Shown here: piece after piece, positions 2,107 to 56,015 of the stretch
How the letters are laid out: each line of letters opens with the position of its first letter
Numbering within the stretch: position 1 is the first letter of the stretch
Assembly: GCA_951406725.2 (NCBI GenBank)
Contig: OX597828.1
Location: forward strand, 1,426,001-1,490,000
DNA length: 64,000 nucleotides
Direction of reading: 5' to 3'
Source: Octopus vulgaris
Taxonomy: Eukaryota
Position numbers and translations under genes: made by a program
Notes under the pieces: model-generated
What the model was told of the DNA's origin: nothing
Database searches by the model: none
What the model saw: only the letters and a program-made list of their open reading frames with translations

Positions 2107-5500
<3,394 letters not shown>

Positions 5501-11039: not shown

Positions 11040-12033
11040 AGACCTCTCCGAGACAACCTCACTCGGGCTGAATTGATTGCCCTTCGCCACCTCCGTCGCC
11101 GCAATGACATTGTCATCAAACTGGCGGACAAAGGCAGAGCGGTGGTGGTGTGGCGCGCAGATCTATAGAGGGAGGAAGCGCTCAGCCAGCTTCAAAATCC
11201 CCTCTTCTATCGCCTCCTCCCCTCCGATCCCACCTCTTCCTACCAACAGCGAGTGTCCTCCACCATCCACGACCTCATCTCCTCTTCTGCTCTCCCCCCC
11301 ACCGCCACCAATCTCATCGTCCGCACACCCCGCACCTCCACCATCTATTTCCTTCCCAAAATTCATAAACCCAATAACCCTGGCCGCCCCATCGTTTCTG
11401 CCTGTAATTGCCCCACTGAACACCTTTCCCTGTACCTCGACCGCATCCTGTCCCCCTTAGTCGCAGCCCTCCCATCCCACATACATGACACCAACCACGC
11501 CCTCCGTCTCTTCATTTCCTTTTCCTTGCCTTCCAGCCCCTCACACCTCCTCTTCATCTTAGACATAAAATCCCTGTATACGGTAATTCCCCACAACGAC
11601 GGTCTCTTAGCCCTCCAACACTTCCTCGACCGTCGTCCCGACCTCACCCCCAGCACCCTCACCATTCTCCGCCTGGCAGAGCTCGTCCTCACCCTCAACT
11701 GTTTCACGTTCGCCGGGGAAACGTACCAACAGGTGTCTGGGGTCGCGATGGAAACGAGAATGGGCCCCAATTTCGCCAATCTATTTGTTGGCTACATTGA
11801 GGCCCAAGTATTCTCCCAATTCTCCGGGCCGACCCCAGAACTATACGGTCGCTACATAGACGACTGCATAGGCGCCACCTCCCTTTCCCGCGGACAACTC
11901 TGCCACTTCATCTCTTTCCTCTCTAACTTCCACCCCTCTCTACAATTCACTTCCACCATCTCCAATACCTCTGTCAACTTCCTTGATATCTCTCTCAGCA
12001 TCGACCACCCCTCCCACTCTCTCACCACCTCGA
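11040..12033 (+). mobile_element. Penelope-like element reverse transcriptase fragment, truncated at both ends
   Basis: DIVIKLADKGRAVVVW; YFLPKIHKPNNPGRPIVS; DIKSLYTVIPH; YQQVSGVAMETRMGPNFANLF; YGRYIDD; VNFLDI. Confidence 0.9.
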
Positions 12034-15010
12034 GATTGGATTAACAGCAATTGACAACTCAAAGCTGCCAGGTAAATATAAAATTTGGTGCTTACAGTTC
12101 GGCTTGTATCTGCGACTTTCGTGGCTACTTTTGATATATGATGTAGCACTATCACAAGTTCAAATCATTGAACAAAAATGTAATGTGGTCATTAGAAAGT
12201 GGCTAGGTCTACCTCGGATATTGAACAGTTCAACACTCTATCGTAAAAGAGGCTCATTGCAGTTGCCACTGGCGTCAATTAGTCGAAATTCATAAACTAG
12301 GGAACGTAGGAACGGTGATGAGGCTGAGAGAATAGAGAGACGTAGCAATCAGGCGTAATACACCAGATGTAAAAACGGTCAGGATGTGGAAAGTAGAAGC
12401 AGAGACCGATGACATTCTGTCTTCTCTTATACACCAAGATATGGTGGGTGCAATGCAATTTCATCGAAAGAGACTTGGTATTGCCGGTGGACTACATCTC
12501 GGCTAAGATGTAGTCCACCACCATATCTCATTCCAATCTATGATGTCTTGCCTTCGCCTATAAATCTAGTAAGATAGAACGTCTCAAAGGATGATGTATG
12601 CAAATGCGGAACGGTCGGAACACTGAAGCATATTCTTTCTAACTGTTCATTAGCATCGAACAGATATACATGGAGACACAACTTGGTTCTTAAGGTTATC
12701 TTCAATGCTATAAAGAACCAAACTACTCTCATCAACAGTGGAAAAAAAAAACCGATTGAAGAACCAACCAGAGATTTCATTACCTTCGTGTGCTCAGGAC
12801 AGCAGATCCGTTATAAGAACTAGAAGAAATTTCCTGTGAGCGACTATTGGCAGGTGGCTGCAGATTTATCAGGGTGCCAAGGATTCTTTCCCATCTCAGT
12901 TGCGAAAAACTCGGATATTATAATGTGATGTGAAAGAAAGTTGTGAATCTAGTCGATGATCTTTTTTATCAACCATAAAAGGTATTACATAGAGGGGACA
13001 CTACAACACATTGGGGACACAAAACATCAAAAAAAAATTATCGTATGATAAAATGAGAGAAAGGGTGATAATGAAAGATGAAAGTGATGTTAACTGCCCC
13101 ATCAGTCAACATCGCTTACTTGTCCTTTTTTTTTCCTATTTTACCTCGAAAATCATAAAGTCTACAAATTTAACCTCCTATATTTCTTTTAGTTTATTCC
13201 TCTTTCCCGGTGCCAATGTTCTTCTTATTAATGTATATTCATCCTCAAGTTCCTTTTCAAGTTCTTCAACCTGATTTTTTGACACTACTATAACCATTTT
13301 CTGATGCCAGCCATCTGGCATTTCTATCTTTCCCCATATTTTCAATCTTTCATATAAATATTCTTCAGGGTGGAGGCTTTGTGTTATCGCTTGTTTGTCT
13401 GTTTTCTGTTTTCTTGTTGGTGAGGAGTGGGTGGAATTGGTGTCTGCAGGAACGGGGAAGGACACAGTGGGTGAGGGTGGTGCTGGGGTGGATTGGGGTG
13501 CACAGTTACTTGCCTTTTTTCTTTTCCGCTGTTTCTTTTTCCCGGGGTTTCCCACTCTTTTCCGTCTTCGTTCACTTGACTCTCCTTTTCTTCTGTTTCC
13601 TTCTGTTCCTTCTGGGGTGCTACCGTTTCCACTGCTGTTTTCTTGGTTATCTGTTCCACTGTCGTATTACAGTTTGCTCTTATGTGGCCCTTCAGGCCAT
13701 ATTTATAACAACGAGGGGCTCTGCCCTCCACCCATACTTTCATCGTTATATCATTTGTCATAATCGACTCCGCCAAATTTTGTAGGGTTTCCATTTCTGC
13801 TTGGACGCTCATTTCCAGCGTCGCTCCTCTCTATCCTTTATCTTCTGTTATAGTCGCTTGGACAATGTCGACCTTATCTTCATTATCGCAAATAACCGCT
13901 GCTATTACTAATTCTGCCTTGATATCCGGTGGAATTCCCTCCACCCTAATTCTTGATGTCCTTCTCCCCAGATAAGTGGGTAGAAGTGTAAATTTTCCAT
14001 TTTTTATCGTCTTTGTGGCCATTCTTCTAGCAGTTTTCTCATTTATATACTGCACCACTACTGTGGCATACTTATTTCCTCTTGCGAGGAATACTATTTC
14101 TTCCTCTGTTGTTCTTAATGCCCCCTCTATCATTTCCATGTTTATTATGTATGTGCTGTTCTTGTCGTTTGCTAATACTCTGTATATTATTTTCTTTTTT
14201 TCCATTTTACTTTTTTTCCTGTTGGGCAACAACAACTCCACCTCTCCGTTCACTCTTTTTATCTTGTCCTGGCATTCCGGTAATTTTGCCAGATTTATTT
14301 CTTTTTTCACCTGCGTATGTCCTTTTCTGTAGTACCATGTCCATTCTTTCTACCGCCTCCACTAATTCTTCTTCGGAAGACGACATGTCTGACTCGCTGA
14401 ACATTCTTCTTGTTCTCTCCATTCTCAATGAGGAAAAACTAGCCGAATTAATGATTCCTTATGAAGACAACGTGGACGCCGCTCGGGCTCTAAAGATTGA
14501 CCGTTATATAAACCTCCTCGAGGAATGTGAAGACGCAGGCTGGAAAGCGGAGCATTTTCCAATCGAAGTCAGATGTAGATTTGTTGGACACAGTGTGAGG
14601 CGACAGTTGTTATCGTTAGGCTTAACTCATCGTAAAGTCAATACCACTATGAACGATATCCAAACTACAGTGGAGAAGGCTAGCCACTGGATTTAGTTAA
14701 AAAGAGACAATGAGCGATGGCTAGAGGAATATTGGGCTATATTTAATAACCAGTTGATCTAGCAAGCAGAGCCGCATATCAGTGAGGTGGGGCCGGTACT
14801 CAATGATACCGCCGAGAGGTAGGCTCCGAAATGTCGCGCATTCTCTCGTGATGACCCCATACATTTGCTGGCTTCCAGTATGTGGAGCTTTCGACTGGTA
14901 GCACTTGCATGAGCATATATATGAGAATATATATATGGTGGCTGCCCCCTCGTTATCGAGTATGGCCATTGCACGAAGCTTAATCAATGTTGTTATCGTG
15001 CAATGCCTGT
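12034..15010 (+). mobile_element. Hero-type (R2-like, RLE) non-LTR retrotransposon 3' part, interrupted at 12957-14438
   Basis: LPGKYKIWCLQFG; RKWLGLPR; YDVLPSPINL; CKCG..GTLKHILSNC..RYTWRHNLVL; RLE motif restored across the insertion as VVNLVELMIPYEDN..KIDRY..FPIEV..EKASHWI. Confidence 0.8.
12957..14438 (-). mobile_element. ORF1-only (gag-like, HAL1-like) non-autonomous retroposon, copy A
   Basis: Frameshifted ORF ~14404-13178 with LARGNKYATVVVQY, LLPTYLGRRTSRIRVEGIPPDI and zinc knuckle VEGRAPRCYKYGLKGHIRANC; no RT; 8-bp TSD ctagtcga/ctagccga; A-rich 3' end. Confidence 0.8.
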
Positions 15011-16020: not shown

Positions 16021-17319
16021 TTTGGAGACTTGTGTGCAGAATATAGAAAAAACGTGCCCAAAAGGACAGTTTTAGTCAACCGCCTATTTGTTTCTGATGG
16101 GTCGGGAGAGAAACATATATGTTGCCAGAGGTAGTTGGTATATCAGCTGAATTAAAGTACATAAGTTGTGTGGTGTAGGATGTGTTGTGTGATATGTGAA
16201 TGTATGTTGGGTGGTGGAAATGAAGTAGTAATTGGTTAACTAGATACATGCAAAAAGTTATAGTTTGATACAGTAGACAGTTATGGTTCGTTTTGATTTG
16301 AAGATGAGAAAGAAATGAAAAAAGCTTATAATATCTGGGTGTTGACCTGAAATAAATGAAAGGAAGGAGGCAAGTTGATAAATAGAGTTGAGAGTTGCAA
16401 CGATATGTTACCCATTAAATTTCTTGCGTGAGATTTCTTAGCATCATGTATAAGTCGCTTCCTTAAATTTTGTCAGTATGCCCTAGTAAATACAGCACAT
16501 ATTTAAATATGAGAAAGCTTTTAACTGTGAAAATAAGTTATAAACACATTTCTTTTATGCTTTCGATGTGCGAAAAAAGAAAAATAGACGTGAAGGAATC
16601 GCCTGATCGATGTAGTCACTCTCCTTCCCCAGTCGATAACTTTAGTCGGTAATTAAGTGATTACCGTGGTGGATGGCTAAACTTGCATATTTATACTCTA
16701 GGCGGTTCTTCTAATAAGCAATTATATTCTATGCATAGTACTGCGTAAATCTGGAGTATTGAAATGAATTTAGATGTGATAATAAACTATATAAATATGT
16801 AAACACATTCCTTCTACACCTTCAATGTGCGAGACTGCTGATTTACCGATTCATGATTTGCTAGTTGTTTCTCAGTGGTGACGTACACACTCTCCTTCTA
16901 ACGACAGATTAGAATGGTATCCAACTTCTGTATATAGTAGCCAGCAACTAAACTATTAATCGCCATACTTGCTTTAGACGGCTCGTTATGAAGTAAATTT
17001 ATGTATATTCTATGCATAACACAGCATAATTTAATAGGACCATACGCGATTTTTTCAAATGTCATTTTTATAACGGTAAATTCTGAAAATTTATTTCGGG
17101 GATGTAAGTGTAAATATTCCAAGAGATGCTGGCTTATGGCTGAGACCCAAATTGCAGGTAACCTTTCAACTTTCCCTGAAACGAAATGCCAAAAGGCAGC
17201 TGCGTTGAATGCTGTGGGTGGTAGTCGCAAACAATTGTCATGAAAACCGAAATGCACGAGGAGGTTATGGGTATAAAAATAATTTGAACCGCGTTCCTGG
17301 AATTCGTAATTTGGACATT

Positions 17320-18787
17320 CGCCTCCCTCACTTTTTTCGAGTTTGGTATTATTAATAAGGTTAGTTGCACGTGTTGTTGAGTCGTTAAACGTTGTTTTTG
17401 TTTGTTGAGATATTTCTGTTTATTGTTTGTCGCGGCCCGTTGTTCGATAAGTCAGTCGGCTTGCAACTCGGCACCTGGAGAGGCAAGTCGATACCTCCTA
17501 ACAACATCGTCGTGAGTTGGACGGAGGGCCTGGTTAAATTGCTAGGAGTCTGGTTAGGTCCGGACCTCCAGATAGAGAAGAATTGGAGCGAGGTGGCGAG
17601 CAGAGTGACCAACCTAACTCAGATCTGATCTGAGCGGTGGCTATCCCTGAAAGGGAGGGCGGAGGTCGCAAATATGTTTATCGCATTATCTACCGCCTGA
17701 CCGTCGTGCCTTGTCCCGATTCGTGGCTAAACAAAATGGAACGATTGCACTTCCGCTTTCTGTGGAAGGGCAGGAGTTCACTTGTAAGGCACTCTATCTG
17801 CTGCCAACAACTGTTAGGGATGCCGTGGCTAATGATGCGCAGATATGCGCTGAAGCTGAGGCATCTCTAGTTTTGGTGAATTGAAACCGTGGGTTAAGCG
17901 TAGACCAAAGTTGGGTGCGTGACTGGCCGAATGTCGGCAGGGACTCGTGCTTCTCTGCCGGACGGGTAATGCCGGTGGCGAGGGTTACACCTCGTCATTC
18001 TATAGAGGGCTTGTAGAGGCAAAGTGTGACGATGATCTGAGGGAAACCCTAGGCTTCAGCGAAGGTCAGCTTGCTGGTTTGTTCCGAAGGACATTCGGGC
18101 TAGGGACGTTGGACAACTTCCAATGTTACCGAGGAGTATTACCAGTTCGAGATAAACTCGCTAGGCATGGCTATTCATGCCAGTCCACTTGCCCAAGATG
18201 CGAGCAGTGGAGTGAAACTGTTCTGCACGCTATTGTGCAGTGTCCGAAAATTTCGGAAATGTGGGTCGAACGGCTGCTGTCACATTTGGGAAGAGTACAG
18301 TTGTCTTCCGAGTCCATTATAAAGATTGTTCCACCATCCTCCTTGAATAAGGAAGGCAAGGTTTGTTTTCGCGCAGTGGTAGTGATGGCGAAAGAGGTTG
18401 TTTGGAGGACACGTATGATGGGAGTGGCGACGGGTGCCTTAATCTCCGGCCCTGGTTTGCTCCGCTTGTTTATTTTCCATCTTAAAAGGAAACTAAGGCT
18501 GGAGAGGAAACGCTTGTCAGCCGATATATATGGCAAAAAAATGGAAGGAAGTGACGTGGATGTTGGGAGTGAATGAAGCCGCGTGAGTGTAAAAAATAAA
18601 GGAAACAAAAAGGTTCAGTGGTGGATCGGGGCTTGTGGGGTCGAACACGTCCCGCTCTCCATTGTGTTGTTTTTGTATTGTTCGTTCATTTGTTTATATA
18701 ATTCGTAATTTATCAACTGCTCATTTTTAATGTTTTATCATTCGATTCCCGACCCCTTTCATTTTGTATCGTCCTCTCTGTATTTAG
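17320..18787 (+). mobile_element. Tx1/L1-clade LINE: ORF2 C-terminus and 3' UTR, possibly joined to a 5' UTR by an internal deletion
   Basis: VKLLGVWLGPDLQIEKNW; WLSLKGRAEVAN; FRFLWKG; zf-RVT-like YRGVLPVRDKL..CPRC..ETVLHAIVQCP; T-rich 3' UTR. Confidence 0.85.
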
Positions 18788-18789
18788 TA

Positions 18790-19685
18790 TTCATGGCAGA
18801 AACAAAATCAATTCGTAATTTGGACGCATCACGTATGACTCGATTCTCAGAAGCGCAGAGAGAACAAGCTGTCGGCCGATTGCAAGCATGGCAGCGTGCT
18901 CTGGTTGTTGCGAAAGCGTACAATGTCCATGTCAACACCATCTATCGTCAGCAGCAGCGATACAACAACACCAACAGCACTGCAGACCGTGCCCGCAGTG
19001 GTCGCTCCCGAGTAACCACGCCCAGGGAGGACCGCTCCATCCACCTGCAACAGCCCCGTGATCGCTTCAGACCGGCCAGCGTGACAGCACGCGAGGCCAT
19101 TGGCACTGGACAGCGACCCATCAGCGACGACACGGTACGACGTCGACTGGCCGCCAACAACATGCGTTGCCGTCGTTCTACTCGGCGGCATGTTCTCACC
19201 CCTCGCCACCATGAGGAACGATCACAGTGCGCTACACAACACCGACATTGGTGATATCAACAGTGGAGATTGATAGTCTTCTCTGCTTTCAGCCCGGATT
19301 TGAACCAAATTGAACACATGTGGGATGAAATTTAGAGAAGCTGAACCAGGTGGTTCCAAAGCCGACAACTCGTGTGGAACTAGAGGCAGCTTTCCTCAGG
19401 GTTTGGGCACAGGTGCCAATGGCTTTTATGAACCGCCTCATGCACTCCTTGTACCAACAGTGTATGGCTGTTTTGAACACCGAGGGAGGGCATAAACGGT
19501 ATTGAACATTTCACGCCTACAATTTCGATGTGCTGGATCCGCCCACTACCAGAACACATGACAACGACACAAAGTGCATCCAAGAAATTGACTTTTTCAG
19601 ATTTATCAAAATTTATCTTTGACATAATGAAATTAAAACATATTTCACTGTCACACACGTCTCGCATTTCTTTTGCGGTTCAGTG
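18790..19685 (+). mobile_element. Internally deleted Tc1-like transposon (HTH retained, most of DDE domain lost, right TIR only)
   Basis: MTRFSEAQREQAVGRL..DRARSGRSRVTTPREDR..ISDDTVRRRL; SPDLNQIEHMWDE; ends ttttgcggttcagtg followed by TA. Confidence 0.85.
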
Positions 19686-23751: not shown

Positions 23752-23820
23752 GGAATAAACACATAAATGTGAAACAAGGTCGAAAAAGGAGTACTCAAAT
23801 ACCAATGGTAGAGTAATATG

Positions 23821-23976
23821 CTTTATTTAAAGCAGCAGAAAATTCAACAAAACGTGTTACTCTGAGTTTCCCGTTGCCGTTCATCGGACAGTTTTTCTAG
23901 CAAAAACTGTCCGATGAACGGCAACGGGAAACTCAGAGTAACAGGTTTTGTTGAATTTTCTGCTGCTTTAAATAAA

Positions 23977-23977
<1 letters not shown>
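23821..23977. repeat. Palindrome with 76-bp arms (one mismatch) and a 5-nt loop inside (TA)n; inverted PLE terminal repeats
   Basis: 23821-23896 is the reverse complement of 23902-23977. Confidence 0.95.
23907..23944 (+). ncRNA. Minimal type I hammerhead-like motif with CCGA core (near-identical copy on the minus strand in the left arm)
   Basis: ctgt-CCGATGA-acg gcaa cgg-GAAA-ctcaga-GTA-acag; stem I ctgt/acag; near-palindromic stem III actc-a-gagt. Confidence 0.6.
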
Positions 23978-24045
<68 letters not shown>

Positions 24046-33776: not shown

Positions 33777-33870
33777 CATTAAATTTAGGGTAAAAATTGA
33801 TATTTATCAATTAGAACCAGTGGTCTAGCATATTAAAGAAAGAATCCGAAGATTAAAATATTTATATATA

Positions 33871-34097
33871 CCAATTAAGGACTGAACACGAAAAAGTGGA
33901 CAGTCAACATGCTAGATATAGACGTCAAATCGCCATTCTCCACAAAAAGTCTATGTTCTCAGATCAAACTCAACACAAAACATCCTGTTTTGTGTTGAGT
34001 TTGATCTGAGAACATAGACTTTTTGTGGAGAATGGCGATTTGACGTCTATATCTAGCATGTTGACTGTCCACTTTTTCGTGTTCAGTCCTTAATTGG
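33871..34097. repeat. Perfect palindrome with 112-bp arms and a 3-nt loop inside (TA)n
   Basis: 33871-33982 is the reverse complement of 33986-34097; loop tcc. Confidence 0.95.
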
Positions 34098-34301
34098 TAT
34101 ATATATATATATATATATTCAGAAATATTAAATTTCTAAATCTCTCATAGAGATATGTACGGTGGTGGGGCGATAGAATGGTTATATTCTGTCAATCTAA
34201 CGTGAACGTGACAGTAGGGGGTTACACCACAGCTGTTTAGCCCTAGGAAGCATCGACGCTTCCTGCTGGCTTCGACACATTTTTCCTGTGTCCTTATATA
34301 C

Positions 34302-35190: not shown

Positions 35191-35378
35191 AAAATTTCCA
35201 AAAGAACACAACACTTTCATTCTCAACCAAATCCACCTTAGAGTAGACTATTACTTTTACAACATTCTACAGTTTAACAGACATAGAACATACCTGGATA
35301 GCCCTAACAACCCCCAAAATAGAGCCTGTAACATTTTTGAAGCCACAGCTTTCCTCACTTTGTCCCAAGAAAAATTTT

Positions 35379-38300
35379 TGTGGGAGAGTCCTGACCACCT
35401 CCACGTGACCAAAAGTGGACCGACGCATTTCAATAAAATAAAATAACTGTGTGAACTGTAGGCAGTTGACAGTCTCCGTTTTTCTGTTCCGTTTCATCAT
35501 TTTTGATCGCTGTTAGACGTGAGTAACATTGTTTATTATTTGTTGAAGGTCTCCCCTCGTGGGTGTACCTACGATTGTTGATTGTTGAAATTGCTGGTTT
35601 TTTACATACGAGTTTGTTGATTTGTGTTTTTGTTCCCATTTAGGGGAGAACCTGAGAAGAGAAGAAAAATGGAAATTGAACCAGCAGAAGGCCACAGTTA
35701 TGCGGCAGCAACTGGCAGAGGAGTGGACTCGGATGCTTTGGAGGTTCGGAGGTTCGCGAAGTAAAAGTAGAACCGAAGAAGCTAAAAGAGTGCGTAAAGT
35801 TACTGGAAAACGAAGGCTATAACCTAAAATTAACGCCACCAGGTGAACTAACAAAGAGTGTAAGAAAGAGAACAGTGATATACAAAACATTGAAAGTGTC
35901 ATCCCGAAAAATTGAAATCGAAATTATCGAAGCCATTGAAGAGTGCCTAAAAGAAGTCAAAAAGTTCATGTTCATCACAAGAGGAAGAAAGTATGGCACA
36001 GTGGAGGTGTGATTCGTGACGGAAGACTCCACTGTAGCCATAAAGACGGAAGAGTGGGTACTTTTGCCAACATACTGTGGCAAGCTTGTTGCCAGGATGA
36101 GAGTAGGAAAATTGCCATCGGAAATAAACGAAACATGGTTGGTTGCAGCGATAATGTTCAATATGGAAGAAGACGCAAAACTACTGAGAGTGACGGGAAC
36201 TTTTAGTTGAATCAATAGGGTTATGGCATAGAGATGGCCATACAAGCAAGTTTAAGTGACCTAAACAAAATTGGAGAGGAAATAATTTTACCCGCGGATG
36301 TGAGGCTGAGAGTGCTACCTATGTGGAGAGAAAGGCTATATGAAGGCGAGGTGTCCCCAGAAAGAAAAGGAGGAACAACAGATGAAACAGTCTGAGGAGA
36401 GGGTGGACGAAGTGGTACCGGATGATGTGAAAGAGACGGCAATAACAGAGGAAGCATTCACAGTAGTTAAAAAAACGAAAAAGAAAAAAAAGAGTAATCT
36501 CTCCGTCGGAGAGGCAGAAAAAGAAGAAAGAAGTAGATAAGGAAGTTGTGAAGGCAGTTGAGAAGGAGGTTGAGAAGGTGGTTGAGAAGGAGCTTGAGGA
36601 GTAGCTCGAGGAGGAGCTTGAGAAAGGGGAGACAGTAGCAAGGAGAGGAGGAGGAGACAGTAGCAAGTGGAGGAGGTAGATTTAGGCGGTGTAGAAAGAC
36701 AACAGCATGAAGGTGAAACAGCGACACTAACGAGAAAGGAGGAGGATAAAGACAGAGAGAAGGCGCCAAGAGTGGAGCAAAGAAAAAAACAAACAAGCGA
36801 GAAAGCCGAAGATGCATAAGTGGAATTTCGTGACATACGCTAAGAGTACAACAACTAAAAGAAAGCTAACGAAGTTTAAATTCATAATAAGGGTTAAGTT
36901 GCCTACAGAGATTTACTCGGAAAATGTGAAGGCTATTGTAATTGATAAAGATAACAGGTTAAAGGAAATGTTTGGAAGGGATATTGATCCACTAGAAGTT
37001 TTGGTGGAGTCTGACGAACTGCCGCCAGTTAAGAGAACTGGAACCATTTATGAGATATTAAAAAAAGTAAGTAAAATTGTTTTTTAAAAAAAAAGAGAGG
37101 ACAAAAATGATGTTAATGGAAACAAAGCAAAGGACAGGAAAAGATCATAAACTGTGCGTAAAAACATTCAGATGGTACTGTATAAGAGTGAGGCTCATGC
37201 AGCCATTTCATTTTTTCATTATTATTTAACATTTTTCTTATTTTCATTCTTTTTGTGTTTTTTGTCCCCACTGTGGCTTTCTGTCTGTCCTTGTGCTGTC
37301 CCCGCTGTGTAAAAGCTTGAGTGCTTAAATAAAGAAAATAGTCGACAGTCAGTAGTTGACAGAGTGGATCGTTTATATTGGATTACTGTGTTAGTTTAAG
37401 ATCGTACTTAGGTTTGGCGTAGTACGGAGTACATTCTGCGTGAACATATTAATTCTGCAAAAGGTTATTCTAGATAACCATATCTAATATTTATTTGGGT
37501 AATATTATTCCTACACCAATCTACACTCCAACGTCATCATAACATTATTGGCGGCGAGGATATTCGAACCCAGACTGGATAGATTGTTGGTTGGAACATG
37601 GAAGAATTACTGGCTTCAGTAATTGAGTTACAGAAACAGCAGCTACAACAGCAACAACAGTAACAACAGTAACAATAGCAGTTGGTGGAATTGCAAAAGC
37701 AACGGCAACTGTTAATACAACTGCAACTCAATAAAACAGAAAATATATCGAATTCGTTCACTCCTGATATGGTCACAAACTCCATCGGTGATTTCACATA
37801 TAACCCGGATGAGGGTATTACCTTTCCTGCATACTACAGAATGTACGAGGAAACTTTTAAAGATGAGTGCTTGGATTGGCAAGATTAGGCAAAAACCTGA
37901 CTTGAGGTTGAGAAATTTGACCCCAGCCAAACACGAAAAATACTGCAACTCTATATTATTGAAGAGACCGGGGAAGTCTGTTTTAAAGAATCTGTTGAAA
38001 CCCTTTCAAAGATTTTCAGCGAGAAAAGCTCTTTATTTAATACGCGCTGGTAATGCATGAAAAAAAAGAGGACGATTTTATTACATACGGTAGAATCGTT
38101 AAGAGGGAATGTAGGAAATTTAAAATTAACGAACTAACACCAGACATGTTTAAATGTTTTGTTTTTTGTTCAGGAAAGACGCAGAAATTCGTAACCGAAT
38201 TCTGACTAAATTAGAACAGAACAAAAGCTAACATTATAAGAAATATCTGAGGAATGCCAGAGAAAAATAAACCTAAGGCACGATACGGAACAAATTGAAG

Positions 38301-41300: not shown

Positions 41301-41627
41301 AAAAGTGGGAAGTTATAGGAGGCTTATTCTCAAAAACAGGGAGATATTGTGGCAGGAACTTGACCACCCCCACGTGACCAAAAGTAGACTGACAATAAAA
41401 TAAAGAAGCAGTGTTAACTGCTGGTAGTTGACAGTCAGCAGTTGACAACGCTTGTCTTTTGTATCGGATTACTGTGTTAGTTTAATATCGTGCCTATATT
41501 TTGCGTGGTACGGAGTACGTTCTGCATAAACATATTAATTCTTCGAAAGGTTATTCTAGATAACCATATCCAACATTTATTTGGGTAACACTTTTCCTAC
41601 ACCAATCTGCACTCCAACGTCATAACA
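35379..41627 (+). mobile_element. Gypsy LTR retrotransposon 1 (Mag/K02A2.6-like), decayed; 5' LTR 35379-37544 split by an insertion, 3' LTR 41348-41627
   Basis: TG..CA LTRs; PBS tggcggcgagg at 37549; gag FTYNPDEGITFPAYY with CCHC knuckles; protease LDTDSDITL; RT FSKFDLSNAYLQ, AYLDD; RNase H DASGYGIGAV; integrase GHPGISKMK..CRGC, VDYAGP, PDTIVSDN; purine tract before 41348. Confidence 0.9.
35475..37339 (+). mobile_element. ORF1-only (gag-like, HAL1-like) non-autonomous retroposon, copy B, inserted in the Gypsy 5' LTR
   Basis: FITRGRKYGTVEV; LLPTYCGKLVARMRVGKLPSEI; CYLCGEKGYMKARCP; VEKE repeats; no RT; ends aataaagaaaat; 11-bp TSD agttgacagtc/agtcgacagtc. Confidence 0.8.
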
Positions 41628-42526
41628 TTATTGGCGACGACATATTCAAACCCCTGAAGATATAACAAAAATATTGTCTGTAAATGTAATGCCAAAAACA
41701 CTCGTCCATCAGAGTATATATAGGATTCACCAGATTTAATCCATCACCCATATAAATTCCAGACTCCTGAAAAGAGAAGTACCACTTCACTCTCCAGACA
41801 TATTTGACATCGATTTTTTGTTTAATAGTTCTTCGCAGTGAATAGTATATCGAAACTTTCAGCCGTATATAAATTACAGGAGATTTCCAAATTCTTCTAA
41901 ACCACTACTTTCCACTTCCCTCATAGCCTCCCAACATCTTATGTAGCCTCTTATTTCTCTTACTTACCAAAAGTACTTAATACTACCCACACCTTTGGAT
42001 ACTAACCTGTCAACCTTTACTCCCTCCCAATTCACTTCCCTCTGTTCAATTTCATACAATTCTGCAAACCATTGCACTCCCCCTCCAGCACCAACCCAAT
42101 CCCTCTGACTCATTAACCACTGCTATATTGACTATAACCCACCCCACTCTATCCACCCCTCAATCTTCTCTCATACCTCTCTACATACCTTAGTAATCTC
42201 CTTCAGCCACTGACCCAGCTAAAACTTATTTCCCTCAAATAACGGCCATTTCCTTTCTCACTCTCTCAACCATCAACTCTATAACCTTCATACAAACTAA
42301 CACAATAAACTACCATTTACACACTACCTACAACACCCTCCCCCTTCCTTCCACTTTCCATGTCTACTACTTTAACTCCCTATCATTAACCCCTCACTCT
42401 TGATATTTATTTTCTCCTCTCACTATTCTCCATCTAAAAACGTCACCAACTCCCCCTCTAATACACTTAACTCTCCACAAAATCATTCCATCTTGTTTCC
42501 TCTAGCACCTCAAATGTAAGATCTCT

Positions 42527-44500: not shown

Positions 44501-44847
44501 TGAAAGAAATTGGAATACGATGGTTACTTAAAGCACTTTATATACTTTATGCGCAATTTTGTAGACATATTACAAAACACTCATAAAATAAATATTCACT
44601 CTTATTTTTCCACTTCTTCTATAAACAACAACAAAATATCACGTAAATAAGCGTGAATATTTCACGGAGTCATATGTACGGGATATTTTTTTGTTTATAG
44701 GGGAAATGGAAAATAAGAGTGAAGTTTTATTTTATGAGTGCTGTGTATTATGTTTATAAAATTGTGCATAAAGTATATAAAGTGTGTATATATAAAGTGT
44801 GTATATATAAAGTGCATTAAGTAACCACCGTATTCCAGTTTCTTTCA
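44501..44847. mobile_element. ~350-bp foldback element or MITE with ~150-bp imperfect inverted arms
   Basis: tgaaagaaattggaatacgatggttacttaa...cactcataaaataaa..ttcactcttatttt pairs with the reverse complement of ~44673-44847. Confidence 0.75.
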
Positions 44848-50470: not shown

Positions 50471-51835
50471 TGTGTGTGTATGTATGTATATATGCATGTA
50501 TGAAAGTATGTAATTTTGGTATGATTGCGTATGTTTGTTTTTATGACACTGTACTTGTGATGCATACATACACATTATTATTCAAGCAGGATTTCAATTT
50601 ATACATACATATGTCTACCCACGCATATTTGCGCGCGCGCCCATACACGTTTTGTGAATGTATGAGTAGGTCTCTGTATGAAAGTGAAAGAAACGTGTCA
50701 CGTGTCTTTGAGTGTCTGTGTGCTTGTATGTATGTATGTATGTATGTATGTATGTATGTATGTATGTGTGTGCATGTGTGTGTATGTGTGTGTGCCTGCG
50801 TGTGCATTTAGACACATAAGTAATTTTTTGAGTTCATATAAGCATATATAAAATTTACTGTGCTTATGTAGAAACTTATTTACCTCCACACACACGCACA
50901 CGGTATAAACACACACACGTACACATATGCAAAAGCTACCGTATTGCAAATATACAGACCAATTCAATCAGAGCTAACCTAAGCTAAGCAATAGCAACAT
51001 TCAGACACACATACCCTTTCAACAGAAATGGCCAGCTCTGGTTAAATTTAGTAACCTGTGATATCGAAAGCCAAGTAATACAACTGAATACTTGTTCTAT
51101 TTTACCTTTCTTTAATTCTACGTAATTTCAATTTTTTTCCTACCAGAACTGTCCCATTCATTCACAAACAGTACGAACGAATGAATGACAGATGGGGGAT
51201 TAAAAAGTTCTGTCAACACTTTAGCTATCTTTTCATTTTGACTTGAATGCATGTGTCCCTATTTTAAGTACGTTTCACACAACTAGAATCCATAGAAAAA
51301 AAACACATATCCGGGATATTCTACATAAATATGAGTACGCACACGCACGCTTCGATACACACAAATACATATTCACATAGACAGCTATATAGGTCAATAA
51401 AAGATAATTTTGTTGTATATTTATTTACACCGTACAAGTTTTGTTACATGTACGACATGAAATTAATTCACCGAATTTTGAGTTGTTTCTGAAGATACAT
51501 AGAACTTGGGGAAAATTTTATGCTCAGATAGACTGCACATTTACTCTTCGTGTGTTTTCATAAATAGGGATACGATGATGACTTTTCGTTGTTATTTTAT
51601 GGATTATTTCGGCGATTGCTTCATTGCCAACTTAGTGTAGTTTTGTTCATATATCTATGATTTCGTCTCGTAAATGAATAACCTTTCTCAGAGTGGTACT
51701 CTGATAAAAGCTTCTGTTTCCACACTGGAATCGGTATATTTTAAAGGTGACACACAATTATATGTCTGGTAAGTGTTTGATATTTTAGCGATAGTGTATG
51801 CAAAAAAACTTCAGGGAAGCGCAAAAAAATCAAAA

Positions 51836-54800
51836 TGTGGTATTCGTGGAGAGAATTGCAGATGAGGTAAACGGAAGTGAAGACTGGAGGGGCCGGCGGA
51901 AGAGCCACGGGGGCATGCGTGGGCAGAAACCACGTGAGGCAGTTCGATGAGAGACAGCGAGTGTGGAAGGACATGTTTTTTTCTTGACGGCGATCGCTCA
52001 TTCCGCCTCGGTCAACAGGTAAGGTCTCTATTTCTTTCTCACTTTTACTTCTTTTTCTGTTGTCTTTTTCCTCCATCACTCAACAAGCTATTTCGGCCAA
52101 TAACAAAAAAAAAACAAAAAAACAAAAAAACAAAAACGATTGATGAGTGTTGTCCGTATTTCGAACGATATGGTCAAGCCGTTTTGTGGTGACACGGATA
52201 TAGTCACTTGGTTGAAGATGAAGTTGGTTGCGAACTCCACAGGATAAACGACTTAGCGAGTTTTATATCGCTGTACCTAGATGGTTCGGCGTTAGCGCTA
52301 TACCTAGAAATGGAAGAAAGGGACCAACTTAGCGCGGAAAAAATAGAAATCCGTTTGATGAGGGCCTTTGCCGAAGGAATGTTCGAAGCGTACGCTCGCC
52401 TGGGGAAAGCAAAGTGGACCGGCGAACAGGTCGACGTATTTGCCAACGAACTCAGGACATTGGCTAAACTGGCGGGATATGAAGGTGAATCACTGGACCG
52501 AACGGTTAAGTTAGCGTTTGTGACTGGCTTACGTGACCACATGTCGATCGAGTTGCAAAAGCTGCCGAACGTTAACTCTATGGCGATGGCAGACATTATA
52601 TCTTGGGCTCGCGTGCTAGTTTCGTGTTGCGGGATGACGCCGGTAGCAGCGACTGCAACAACGAAAAGTGGCCGAGCAAAGAGAGGGGTCAAACAAGGAA
52701 CGTGTGCGACCATTCAAAGGACAGTGTTTCCGGTGTCAGGGCTCACACATGGTACGAGACTGCAAGTCACCCAAATCTGAGATCATTTGCTACTGGTGTC
52801 GAGAAACAGGATATATAGCCAGCGAATGTCTGCGGGGAAACAGTCTGAGACTATTACACTGGTAGTTATCCCTTCGGATCAATAGAGGCGCGTTTATCGT
52901 TACCTGTAGTCGACATTCTGGTGGAGGGGAAGATGTCGCGAGCCCTTGTGAACACGGGCTGTACGACAACCTCGATGACTCCAGAAGTGGTAGAGACGTG
53001 GAGTGGAGTGAGCAATGTAAAGGCAGTTGACGGAAGAGAGGTACACTATGAAGGCGTTACAGACGCGCAGATTGTGGTGCAGGGAACAAAGCTGACGCTG
53101 CAAGCAATTGTAGTTGGCCACTTAGTGGACGAGACTGACGTGGTGATGGGGATGGATGCAATCTCCCGTTTGTGAGGTGTCACTGTCAACGAGGCCGGTG
53201 TAACGTTCGGGTTGCGGAGAAACCGTGTATGGCGAGGCCGTGCATTGGTGAGAACCGCGAAGAAAACTATGCTGCACACACCATTGAAGACCAGGACTTT
53301 CGGGCTGTCTTCGATGGCCAGAGATGGACAGTGGAGTGGCACAGGAAGGGAGAGCCCCCGACGTTAAAAAATAAAGTGGGCTGTTATAAGCGTACTCTGA
53401 AAGGAGATGCCAGAAGTGAGTTCGAGGGGGAGGCGGAGCGGTGGATTAAGGAGGGTATATTGATCCCTTGGGAAGAAGTAGAGAGCGGAGTCCTGGCGTT
53501 GATAGCAGTGATACAGCCCACAAAGCATAAGGTCAGGCCAGTGCTTGACTTCCGAGAGCTGAATAACCACGTATCATGTCATTACAGGCGACGAGGCCAC
53601 AGATGTCTGCGGAGACACCTTGCGAGGGTGGAGGAAGATGACAGGGGCATCCACGATCGTCGACTTGAAGTCGGCATACCTGCAGGCGCATGTGACTGAG
53701 AAACTGTGGAAGTATCAGCTTGTCAGGTATAAGGACCGGACATACTGACTGACCAGGCTGGGCTAAATTCAGCGCCAAAGATTATGGCAACAATTATCAA
53801 GGCCATCCTGGGAAAGGTGGACAGAGTAAAAAGGGCCACCAAGTCGTATATCGATGACATCCTGGTGGATGAAACCGTAATGCCAGCAACGGAGGTCATA
53901 GGCCACCTGAAGAGTTTTGGACTGATCGCCAAGCCACCAGAGGCAATGGAGGGAGGCGCTGCACTGGGTCTCAAGCTATGGAGAGACAAGGCTGGCGCGT
54001 TGATGTTCCGGCAAGGGAACGAGATACCCGAACTGGGCACCAGCATGAGTAGACGGGAATTGTTCTCGGTATGTGGGAAGCTGGTGGGACCACTACCCGA
54101 TTGCAGAATGGCTACGGACAGCATGTAGCTTTATCAAGAGACGAGCCGAAGGAGCGATGTGGAACGATAAAGGTGGGAAGAAGACGATACAGGAAGTCTT
54201 GGTCAGAGTGAGAGCAGAGGATCCAGTAAGAAGTTGGTGTATTCCCAAATCAAAGAGCGGGATCGTATGGTGTGACGCGAGTGGCATCGCAATATGTGTT
54301 GTTTTGGAAGTGGGAGGCGTCGTGGTGGAAGATGCAGCCTGGCTCAGGAAGACGGATGACTGCAACCATATCAATGTGGCGGAGTTGGATGTTGTACTGA
54401 AGGGAGTGGACCAAACCTTGAAGTGGGGGCTGCGCACCATAGAAATTAGGACCGATTCGGCCACTGTACTTGGTTGAGTGACGGCAGTCATCACCAATGA
54501 GCGGAGGGTGCGAACCAAAGGGGCCGCAGAGATGTTGGTAAAGCGTCGATTGGGGATACTGCGTGAACTAGCCGCTGAGTTCGACATGAAGCTGAGCATG
54601 ATCTTTGTGCCTTCCAAGAAGAACAGGGCAGACGTCCTGACCAAGGTAAAGCGAGCCTGGTTGCAGGTGCCAGAGGACGCGGAACAGGCTGTGGCTGCAG
54701 TATTCCGTCTGAGTAACTTGGAGTTGAGGAGATTGCATACCATGCATCACATGGGGGTGGACAGGATGTTGTTCCTAGCCAGAAAAGTTGACTCCGATGT

Positions 54801-56015
54801 AACAAGACGGAGCGTGCAGAGAGTGGTTAGCAGCTGTGACAGGTGCCAGTCCATCGACCCTGCTCCAGGCGTACATGAGGTGAGTATTATTCCAGTGGGT
54901 CACAACTGGAAACGACTGGCAGTGGACATAACACACTACCGGCAGGGGACATACCTCTCAATGGTTGACTGCGGACCGGGGCGGTTGGCCATATGGAGGG
55001 AGATGAAGACGTGAGAGTACTAAATGAGATATTCCTGGAACGAGGCCCTGTGGATGAGCTGCTTCTGGATAATGGCACTGTATTTCGCTCGGAGGTGCTG
55101 AAAGAAATGCTTGATGGGTGGCAGGTCAGCCGCTTCTTTAGGGCTGCCAAGTGGGAATGAGGTGGTGGAAAGGCATCATCGTACCATCAAGACTATGGCA
55201 GAGAGGGTCCACATTCCACCAATCGAGGCCGTATTTTGGTACAATATGTCGCCCAGATCAGGACAGGCTGAGGAGTCGGTGTCACACAGCAGAATATTCA
55301 GGTACGAGTGGAGGCATCCGTGTACTGCATCAATGCAATCCGGGGCAGAGGAAGAGCATGCCTTCGTGCAGGTCGGGAAGAAGTTTGGGTAAAACCCCCA
55401 TACGCACAGTGCACATCACGATGGGGAAAGGGAACAATAACCTTCATCAATTCGAAGAACAACATTTCTGTCGATGGTATGCCACGCCACGTTTTGGATA
55501 TACGGAAGATTGTCAATGCCTCTGAGGATGGAACCAGTAGCAGTGGGCAAGAAGATGAAGACAGCAGTAGTAGGCAAGATGATGAAGCAGCATGCCAGGA
55601 ACTCAGGCCAGTCCTAGGGTCGCACGGCGACCACAGAGGGAGCGGCACCCTCCTCTCTGGTTGGCTGATTATGAAACCAGTTAAAGTGTGAATTCGGGAG
55701 GGAGGAGTGAGTGGGAAAGCCTGTAGATCAGCGGGGGCGTGTGGTGCTTGTGGTGTTAAGGGCTGTGATGAGTTATGTGGTGTTCGTAGAGAGGATTGCA
55801 GATGAGGTAAACGGAAGTGAAAACTACAGGGGCCGGCGGAAGAGCCACGGGGGCATGCGTGGGCAGAAAGCACGTGGGGCAGTTCAATGAGAGACAGCGA
55901 GTGTGTCTTTTTCCTGACAGTGATCGCTCACTCATCCCTCCTCGGTCAACAGGTAAGGTCTCTGTATTTCTTTCTCCCTTTTGCTTCTTTTCTGTTGTCT
56001 TTTTCCTCCATCACA
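51836..56015 (+). mobile_element. Gypsy LTR retrotransposon 2, compact and decayed; LTRs ~51836-52085 and ~55776-56015
   Basis: LTRs share gcagatgaggtaaacggaagtgaa..ggggccggcggaagagccacgggggcatgcgtgggcagaaa; gag CFRCQGSHMVRDC, CYWCRETGYIASEC; protease ALVNTGC; RT VRPVLDFRELN, DLKSAYLQ, YIDDILV; RNase H WCDAS, HINVAELD; integrase HTMHHMG..CDRC, LAVDITH, LLDNG. Confidence 0.92.

Follow-up and report, generated by a model that had tools for sequence, protein, structure and literature searches.

An ORF1-only LINE fossil inside a Gypsy LTR of Octopus vulgaris and its large uncharacterised protein family

Introduction

LINEs that are non-autonomous and carry an ORF1 only are an already described class of retrotransposons. 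HeT-A (Jockey), HAL1 (L1) and Ag-Sponge (CR1) are named as bipartite non-autonomous LINEs that keep ORF1, the cases described coming from mammals (HAL1) and insects (HeT-A, Ag-Sponge), and the protein of this ORF1-present class is thought to multimerise with proteins of the helper (PMC5786205). Several independent origins are reported for HAL1 (PMC5753468), and the guinea pig HAL1 is described as having kept the coding capacity of its ORF1 for ~29-44 Myr (PMC3627910). Such elements touch the question of why an element that borrows its ORF2 retains an ORF1 of its own, and an independent, deeply diverged case from a cephalopod would permit a comparative test of a cis-acting ORF1. An RRM combined with a CCHC knuckle defines the type I LINE ORF1, listed for I, Jockey, R1, Tad1, plant L1 and L2 elements (PMC4120745), and in animals other than mammals type I-like variants are described as accompanying the Tx1 group (PMC5203782). 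The open literature that we searched gave no report of ORF1-only LINEs in cephalopods or molluscs; the family may already be catalogued in Dfam, in Repbase or in the octopus repeat library on Zenodo. Here we describe element B, a well-bounded fossil of an ORF1-only LINE with a large uncharacterised protein family, found in a window of 64,000 nt of Octopus vulgaris contig OX597828.1 together with a distant second copy, element A.

Results and Discussion

Element B is an insertion in a Gypsy LTR

A first-pass annotation of this DNA had proposed a 1.86-kb insert with an 11-bp target-site duplication that splits a Gypsy LTR, and its coordinates, size and duplication all proved correct (Table 1). 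The duplicated flanks of the 1,865-nt insert, AGTTGACAGTC on the left and AGTCGACAGTC on the right, are identical at 10/11 nt, and among 1000 random segments of equal length 18 had a repeat as good as this no more than 15 nt from both ends. Stronger evidence of insertion than the duplication itself comes from comparison with the uninterrupted LTR downstream, which serves as the empty site. When the two halves of the interrupted LTR were aligned separately, the left half matched 41347-41436 of the downstream LTR and the right half matched it from 41425 onward, so that the overlap comprises only the duplicated 11-12 nt. The host is labelled Gypsy from Pfam matches in the body downstream of B (RVT_1 and RT_RNaseH) and from the domain order as read in the sequence. 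The two Gypsy LTRs differ at 45 of 294 sites (JC 0.17), which at 0.0036 per lineage per Myr gives a rough figure of ~24 Myr as an upper bound for the age of B. They are perhaps not a matched pair, since a TGGCG primer-site-like motif follows each of them (at 41633-41650 in the downstream case); that the motif stands after the downstream LTR as it does after the upstream one suggests a former tandem arrangement. Self-comparison of the window gave no terminal direct repeats of B's own, the LTR pieces being those of the host element.

Table 1. Positions of elements A, B and C, of their target-site duplications and of the interrupted LTR, counted from the first nucleotide of the window
Feature	Position	Strand	Remark
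Element B	35475..37339	+	1,865-nt insert inside Gypsy LTR
Left target-site duplication of B, AGTTGACAGTC	35464..35474	+	single copy in downstream LTR
Right target-site duplication of B, AGTCGACAGTC	37340..37350	+	
Interrupted Gypsy LTR, left part	35378..35474	+	74 matches, 16 mismatches against downstream LTR
Interrupted Gypsy LTR, right part	37340..37560	+	175 matches, 29 mismatches over 37351-37560
Downstream Gypsy LTR	41347..41632	+	uninterrupted, empty-site control
5' UTR of B, T-rich	35475..35668	+	194 nt; presumed internal promoter, from sequence and composition
Single broken ORF1 of B	35669..37087	+	~470 codons; start by P0031, end by P0005
First RRM-fold domain	35866..36081	+	boundaries carried over from model of relative P0017
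Second RRM/ferredoxin-like domain	36082..36312	+	P0017 model; broken by stop and frame changes
Single zinc knuckle	36313..36354	+	CCHC in relatives; His to Tyr in B
Lys/Glu-rich low-complexity linker	36355..36808	+	
Conserved C-terminal domain	36809..37084	+	~90 residues, no Pfam family; similarity to P0005
3' UTR of B	37088..37339	+	252 nt; alignment to A
Element A, ORF1-only	12957..14438	-	1,482 nt; ORF ~14422-13136
Target-site duplication of A	12949-12956 and 14439-14446		8 nt (7/8)
Element C, LINE remnant	17317..18809	+	3' part of ORF2 with zf-RVT, T-rich 5' end
Target-site duplication of C	17301-17316 and 18810-18825		exact, 16 nt

B carries one complete but broken ORF1

The ORF of B opens with an ATG and contains six frame changes and three in-frame stops, so this copy is dead. 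Its extent is complete, because two independent relatives fix its limits, P0031 matching the start at 20/33 residues and P0005 matching the end (43% over 99 aa, E 3e-23). P0031 is not the B locus itself, since it carries another family segment, to which nothing downstream of B corresponds. A scan of all six frames of B returned 0 Pfam families at E<=0.05, and thus no endonuclease or reverse transcriptase remnant; between the ORF stop and the end of the element there are 252 nt only. The 3' UTR passes from a purine-rich stretch to a T-rich one, then to GTCCCC motifs and an A-rich end with AATAAA, its terminus being AAATAAAGAAAAT, a 13-nt A-rich stretch and not a true poly(A) tract. No Rfam match was obtained in 35300-37700. 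B itself is a fossil and shows no sign of a function in the host.

The ORF1 protein belongs to a diverse family

A word-index search with the core of A gave a single match, UniRef A0A0L8G4Z0 of Octopus bimaculoides (P0005), an intact 386-aa gene model called "CCHC-type domain-containing protein" and the sole named relative. It falls in the same family as A and B, with 39% identity to the core of A and 43% to the C-terminal domain of B, and differs from B in being an intact gene model, annotated by its knuckle alone. In a set of 1.84 billion representatives a three-sequence profile then matched 628 clusters at E<=0.001, of which 196 reached 1e-10, a count that exceeds the number of lineages because the clusters are mostly fragments and include further knuckle-repeat proteins. 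Among the best 150 relatives 148 match the core profile, and P0007 and P0052, which are knuckle-repeat proteins, were dropped. Intact ORFs of 386-623 aa are present, and B-like proteins at 52-74% identity occur elsewhere. The zf-CCHC match of Pfam marks a single knuckle after the RRM pair; 29 of 147 relatives have one, 118 (mostly fragments) have none, and no relative has more. Neither endonuclease nor reverse transcriptase was among the Pfam matches listed for the 150 best relatives (at E<=0.1 for 29 of them, and the best five at E<=0.001 for the other 121), which is a weak indication of absence because no more than 17 members of the family are as long as 300 aa, and an ORF1 is normally separate from its ORF2. 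Fused or longer forms of 516-2000 aa were not found among 8000 scored candidates, again weak evidence, and 440 pattern matches in prokaryotic genomes included none that was confirmed as a family member.

A sequence search of the PDB with the core profile returned zinc knuckles only, and the fold was approached through P0017, an intact relative and not B itself, modelled from a 90-sequence alignment with pLDDT of 84-96 per block over residues 21-230. Foldseek placed tandem-RRM proteins on top (best E 7.9e-5, with low whole-chain TM), and VIA-align aligned residues 64-141 with RRMs (Z 8.1, rmsd 2.1, 71 aligned) and residues 142-225 with ferredoxin-like ACT/S6 folds (Z 8.1, rmsd 2.5, 79 aligned), both middling values. 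An ORF1-type fold is thereby predicted for the intact relative and, carried over from this model, the ORF of B is read as a type I LINE ORF1 in which two RRM-like domains and one knuckle are followed by a charged linker and a C-terminal domain that has no name. The Atlas look-alikes, to be read as leads only, were unnamed CCHC clusters (0.90-0.92), ZCCHC3-type clusters (0.87-0.89), PRE_C2HC clusters (0.87-0.90) and DUF4283, with structural TM values of 0.37-0.54 for ZCCHC3 and 0.42 for DUF4283. We take the ZCCHC3-type, PRE_C2HC and DUF4283 look-alike clusters to be LINE ORF1 families.

The C-terminal domain of B is common to P0005, P0017 and P0026 (E 1e-20 by a profile built without B), and its link to the C-terminal domains of a second group of relatives is weak (hhalign 58%, 27 columns). 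Its own model is a low-confidence alpha/beta fold (pLDDT 64) with no Foldseek match at E<=0.001 and a best Z of 5.8 to ferredoxin-like folds, which is uninformative; in the full-length model the domain is mis-folded owing to a poor alignment there. Apart from the knuckle, the family has no Pfam model and is uncharacterised. This matters for annotation, as such ORFs enter gene models and classifiers based on reverse transcriptase cannot place ORF1-only elements. The gene models P0089, P0062 and P0097 fuse the ORF1 to WD40, LDL-receptor class A or C2H2 arrays; these fusions and the double segment of P0031 are probably prediction artefacts or, conceivably, products of exonisation.

B is like HAL1 in having an ORF1 only, no ORF2 and LINE-type ends. 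HAL1 as described, however, is a mammalian, L1-derived element with a type II ORF1 (coiled coil-RRM-CTD), whereas B is an octopus element with a type I ORF1, in which one CCHC and a C-terminal domain that has no name follow two RRM-like domains; Transposase_22, the Pfam family of the type II L1 ORF1, was not among the matches listed for the 150 relatives. B is therefore not a HAL1 in the strict sense, its ORF1 being of type I. HeT-A and Ag-Sponge are insect elements as described, and belong to clades other than L1/Tx1, the presumed one of B; HeT-A is telomere-targeted, unlike A and B, which lie inside other transposons and are flanked by duplications. The type I ORF1 proteins of the Tx1/L1 group (ZCCHC3-like, DUF4283) have the same RRM-RRM-CCHC order as the family of B, which differs in never having more than one knuckle and in lacking RBD_ZCCHC3 and DUF4283 among the Pfam matches listed.

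A second, distant ORF1-only copy lies in the same window

When the core profile was run against 858 six-frame segments of the window, it found only A and B, neither followed by an ORF2; no autonomous element carrying a B-type ORF1 was seen. A gave no endonuclease or reverse transcriptase match to Pfam in its three sense frames. Over 116 aa the protein cores of A and B show 31% identity (E 6e-17), and all six of the motifs that had been claimed as shared are present, at 35977, 36061 and 36313 (+) in B and at 14085, 13986 and 13710 (-) in A. DNA similarity outside the 3' end, described earlier as scant, is indeed limited to a 39-nt patch (32/39) at the RGxKY motif. The "same architecture" attributed to the two copies applies to the core and the tail; it does not extend to the C-terminal region of A, which matched neither the B-type and second-type profiles nor the relatives of B, or to the 5' UTR, of ~17 nt only in A as against 194 nt in B. 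The knuckle is mutated in both, with Y for H in B and Y for the second C in A. The host of A, at ~11100-12956 and 14439-14750 (+), is a decayed LINE whose only Pfam match is RVT_1 (E 0.12), upstream; we take the C-terminal region of this LINE to resemble a restriction-like endonuclease domain, which A would split.

Both elements show TCGAC at the 3' junction (37342-37346 for B; 12952-12956, minus strand, for A), and the sole mismatch of each duplication lies within this pentamer. In the duplication of element C, a LINE remnant described below, TCG stands near the start (18813-18815). In A, B and C alike, TCG thus falls no further than 6 nt into the 3' duplication, a regularity of three junctions noticed post hoc. 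TCGAC at the junctions may possibly reflect a shared target preference or an element-encoded end; the Tx1 clade is described as often preferring particular target sequences (PMC4494074).

The 3' tails of A and B are related, and that of A resembles the tail of a candidate helper relative

The 3' UTRs of A and B align with a score of 106-113, compared with 45-47 for dinucleotide shuffles (0/1000) and 67-71 for block shuffles preserving composition (0/1000 with each of three block sizes), and the junction of ORF1 to 3' UTR is the same in these two copies from distant branches. Element C retains only the C-terminal end of the reverse transcriptase and came to notice through its zf-RVT match (E 3.7e-7), a Pfam family that another LINE also matches weakly (E 0.002). 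The whole 3' UTR of A, from the ORF stop, is collinear with that of C (0/1000 dinucleotide shuffles, 3-4/1000 block shuffles), and across 2552 windows the best non-self matches of A were B and then C, and the best of C was A. The comparison of the B and C tails gave 1/1000 with dinucleotide shuffles and 50-81/1000 with block shuffles, which is not significant; C is not within the top 7 non-self windows of B, B and C show no relation at their 5' ends (423/1000 shuffles), and an nhmmer profile made from two sequences of the terminal 100 nt did not find C. A motif search matching all of A, B and C is not independent evidence, as these three were the source of its motif. The tail links are accordingly firm for B and A, moderate for A and C and indirect for B and C.

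On this sequence evidence C is a candidate relative of the helper. We take its ORF2 motifs to be Tx1-like; PDB sequence searches with the C ORF2 gave no relevant match and do not confirm this likeness. For O. vulgaris, 80 L1-Tx1 families are reported, 13 of them recently active (PMC13282606), so potential helpers exist; these 13 average ~5.4 kb (2,288,644 bp / 421; data PMC13282606), and CR1 and Dong/R4 are likewise given as (recently) active in this species (PMC13282606). The T-rich 5' end of C is joined to the 3' part of its ORF2, and C is itself perhaps a bipartite element with an internal deletion. A Tc1-like transposase (HTH_Tnp_Tc3_2, E 4e-6) either contains C or lies just downstream of it.

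ORF1 diverged under constraint

A quick tree covered 68 of the 151 rows, P0005 not among them, and left 36 of 65 inner branches open; in it B belongs to a group of 31 rows with an SH-aLRT support of 97, A lies outside this group, and the best identity of A is 37%. Over 114 codons A and B are identical at 0.57/0.60/0.38 of first, second and third positions, against 0.32/0.27/0.31 expected from composition, with the qualification that a protein-guided codon alignment inflates positions 1-2; 21 of 37 identical residues are encoded by different codons. From the codon-position identity and from the differing codons at identical residues we conclude that the ORF1 protein diverged under constraint. 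This pattern says nothing on whether ORF2 had already been lost while the constraint acted, and would be equally expected if A and B had each come separately from a different autonomous LINE. The earlier proposal of an old, diversified group lacking ORF2, with its ORF under selection, stands as regards the ORF1-only copies, their distant branches, the large diverse family and the constraint; constraint after the loss of ORF2 and a single ORF2-less ancestor stay conjectural. A single old ORF2-less lineage under selection would be plausible; repeated origins are the known pattern.

A stronger form of this idea, which we hold to be rather unlikely, is that A, B and their relatives make up one ancient monophyletic octopus clade without ORF2 that went on radiating into dozens of lineages, its tail staying conserved while helpers and C-terminal domains were swapped. 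Were it true, there would be a lasting lineage of ORF1-only retroposons and not a series of recent deletions, and the ORF1 might sequester or restrain the RNP of the helper as a selfish or domesticated LINE regulator.

Origin of B

B has the anatomy of a retrotransposed insertion with a target-site duplication, a single ORF, no trace of an ORF2 and a tail in common with A; in its insertion anatomy, its LINE ORF1-type protein and its lack of ORF2 it agrees with the ORF1-present bipartite class. We regard B as quite likely a dead full-length copy of a non-autonomous ORF1-only LINE of the HAL1 type, moved in trans, probably by L1/Tx1, which would imply a multi-copy family that lost ORF2 as a family. 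The source copy would have been transcribed from its own 5' end, and its ORF1 protein, with two RRM-like domains, a knuckle and a C-terminal domain, would have bound and packaged its own RNA. The ORF2 protein of an autonomous LINE, most likely L1/Tx1, would have recognised the conserved 3' tail, and target-primed reverse transcription would have placed the copy in the Gypsy LTR and left the 11-nt duplication, the inserted copy decaying afterwards.

That B and A are instead one-off, internally deleted copies of two autonomous LINE families, produced by template jump or later deletion, with the protein family being the ORF1 of ordinary octopus LINEs, appears improbable. It would need two independent clean losses of ORF2 within 64 kb, each sparing a complete ORF1 and a complete 3' UTR, and the only two matches to the core profile in the window have no ORF2 after them. 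Element C does show that LINE copies with internal deletions or truncations are present here, but C retains a remnant of its ORF2; the 628 clusters, for their part, are known without genomic context, and many of them are perhaps ORF1s of autonomous elements.

We are more doubtful still of a reading of B and A as processed pseudogenes, copied by L1/Tx1 machinery from L1TD1- or ZCCHC3-like host genes that had been domesticated from a LINE ORF1. A UTR-ORF-UTR order, AATAAA, an A-rich end and a duplication fit the anatomy of a retrocopy too, and the intact ORFs among the relatives and the ZCCHC3-type look-alikes agree with it; yet the tails can still be aligned while the proteins are 31% identical, the tail of A resembles that of an ORF2-bearing LINE, and the family shows great diversity and consists mostly of fragments, as mobile elements would.

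Least probable of these readings is an ORF1-only family that came from, and was moved by, another LINE clade (CR1/L2 or the I/Jockey group) and not L1/Tx1. CR1/L2 LINEs typically end in a microsatellite tail, whereas B has an A-rich tail with AATAAA, and its sole tail relative in the window, C, bears zf-RVT. In favour of such a clade are the type I ORF1 described in I, Jockey, R1, Tad1 and L2, the reported origin of Ag-Sponge from CR1, the reported recent activity of CR1 in O. vulgaris, the PRE_C2HC clusters among the Atlas look-alikes and a B-C tail link that is not significant. With its duplication, its A-rich end and no terminal repeats, B is neither a gag-only LTR element nor a Helitron, and we rejected both.

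Other mobile elements in the window

A further decayed LINE at ~2214-5445 (+) matches RVT_1 (E 4e-9) and has (AAT)n arrays on both sides; we take it to be of Dong/R4 type. A second, GC-rich LTR retrotransposon lies at 51835-55963 (+), with LTRs that are 85% identical and an integrase zinc-binding match. Palindromic MITE-like elements, near-perfect or diverged, were seen at 33845-34123 (96%), 23816-23982 (97%) and 44534-44784 (80%).
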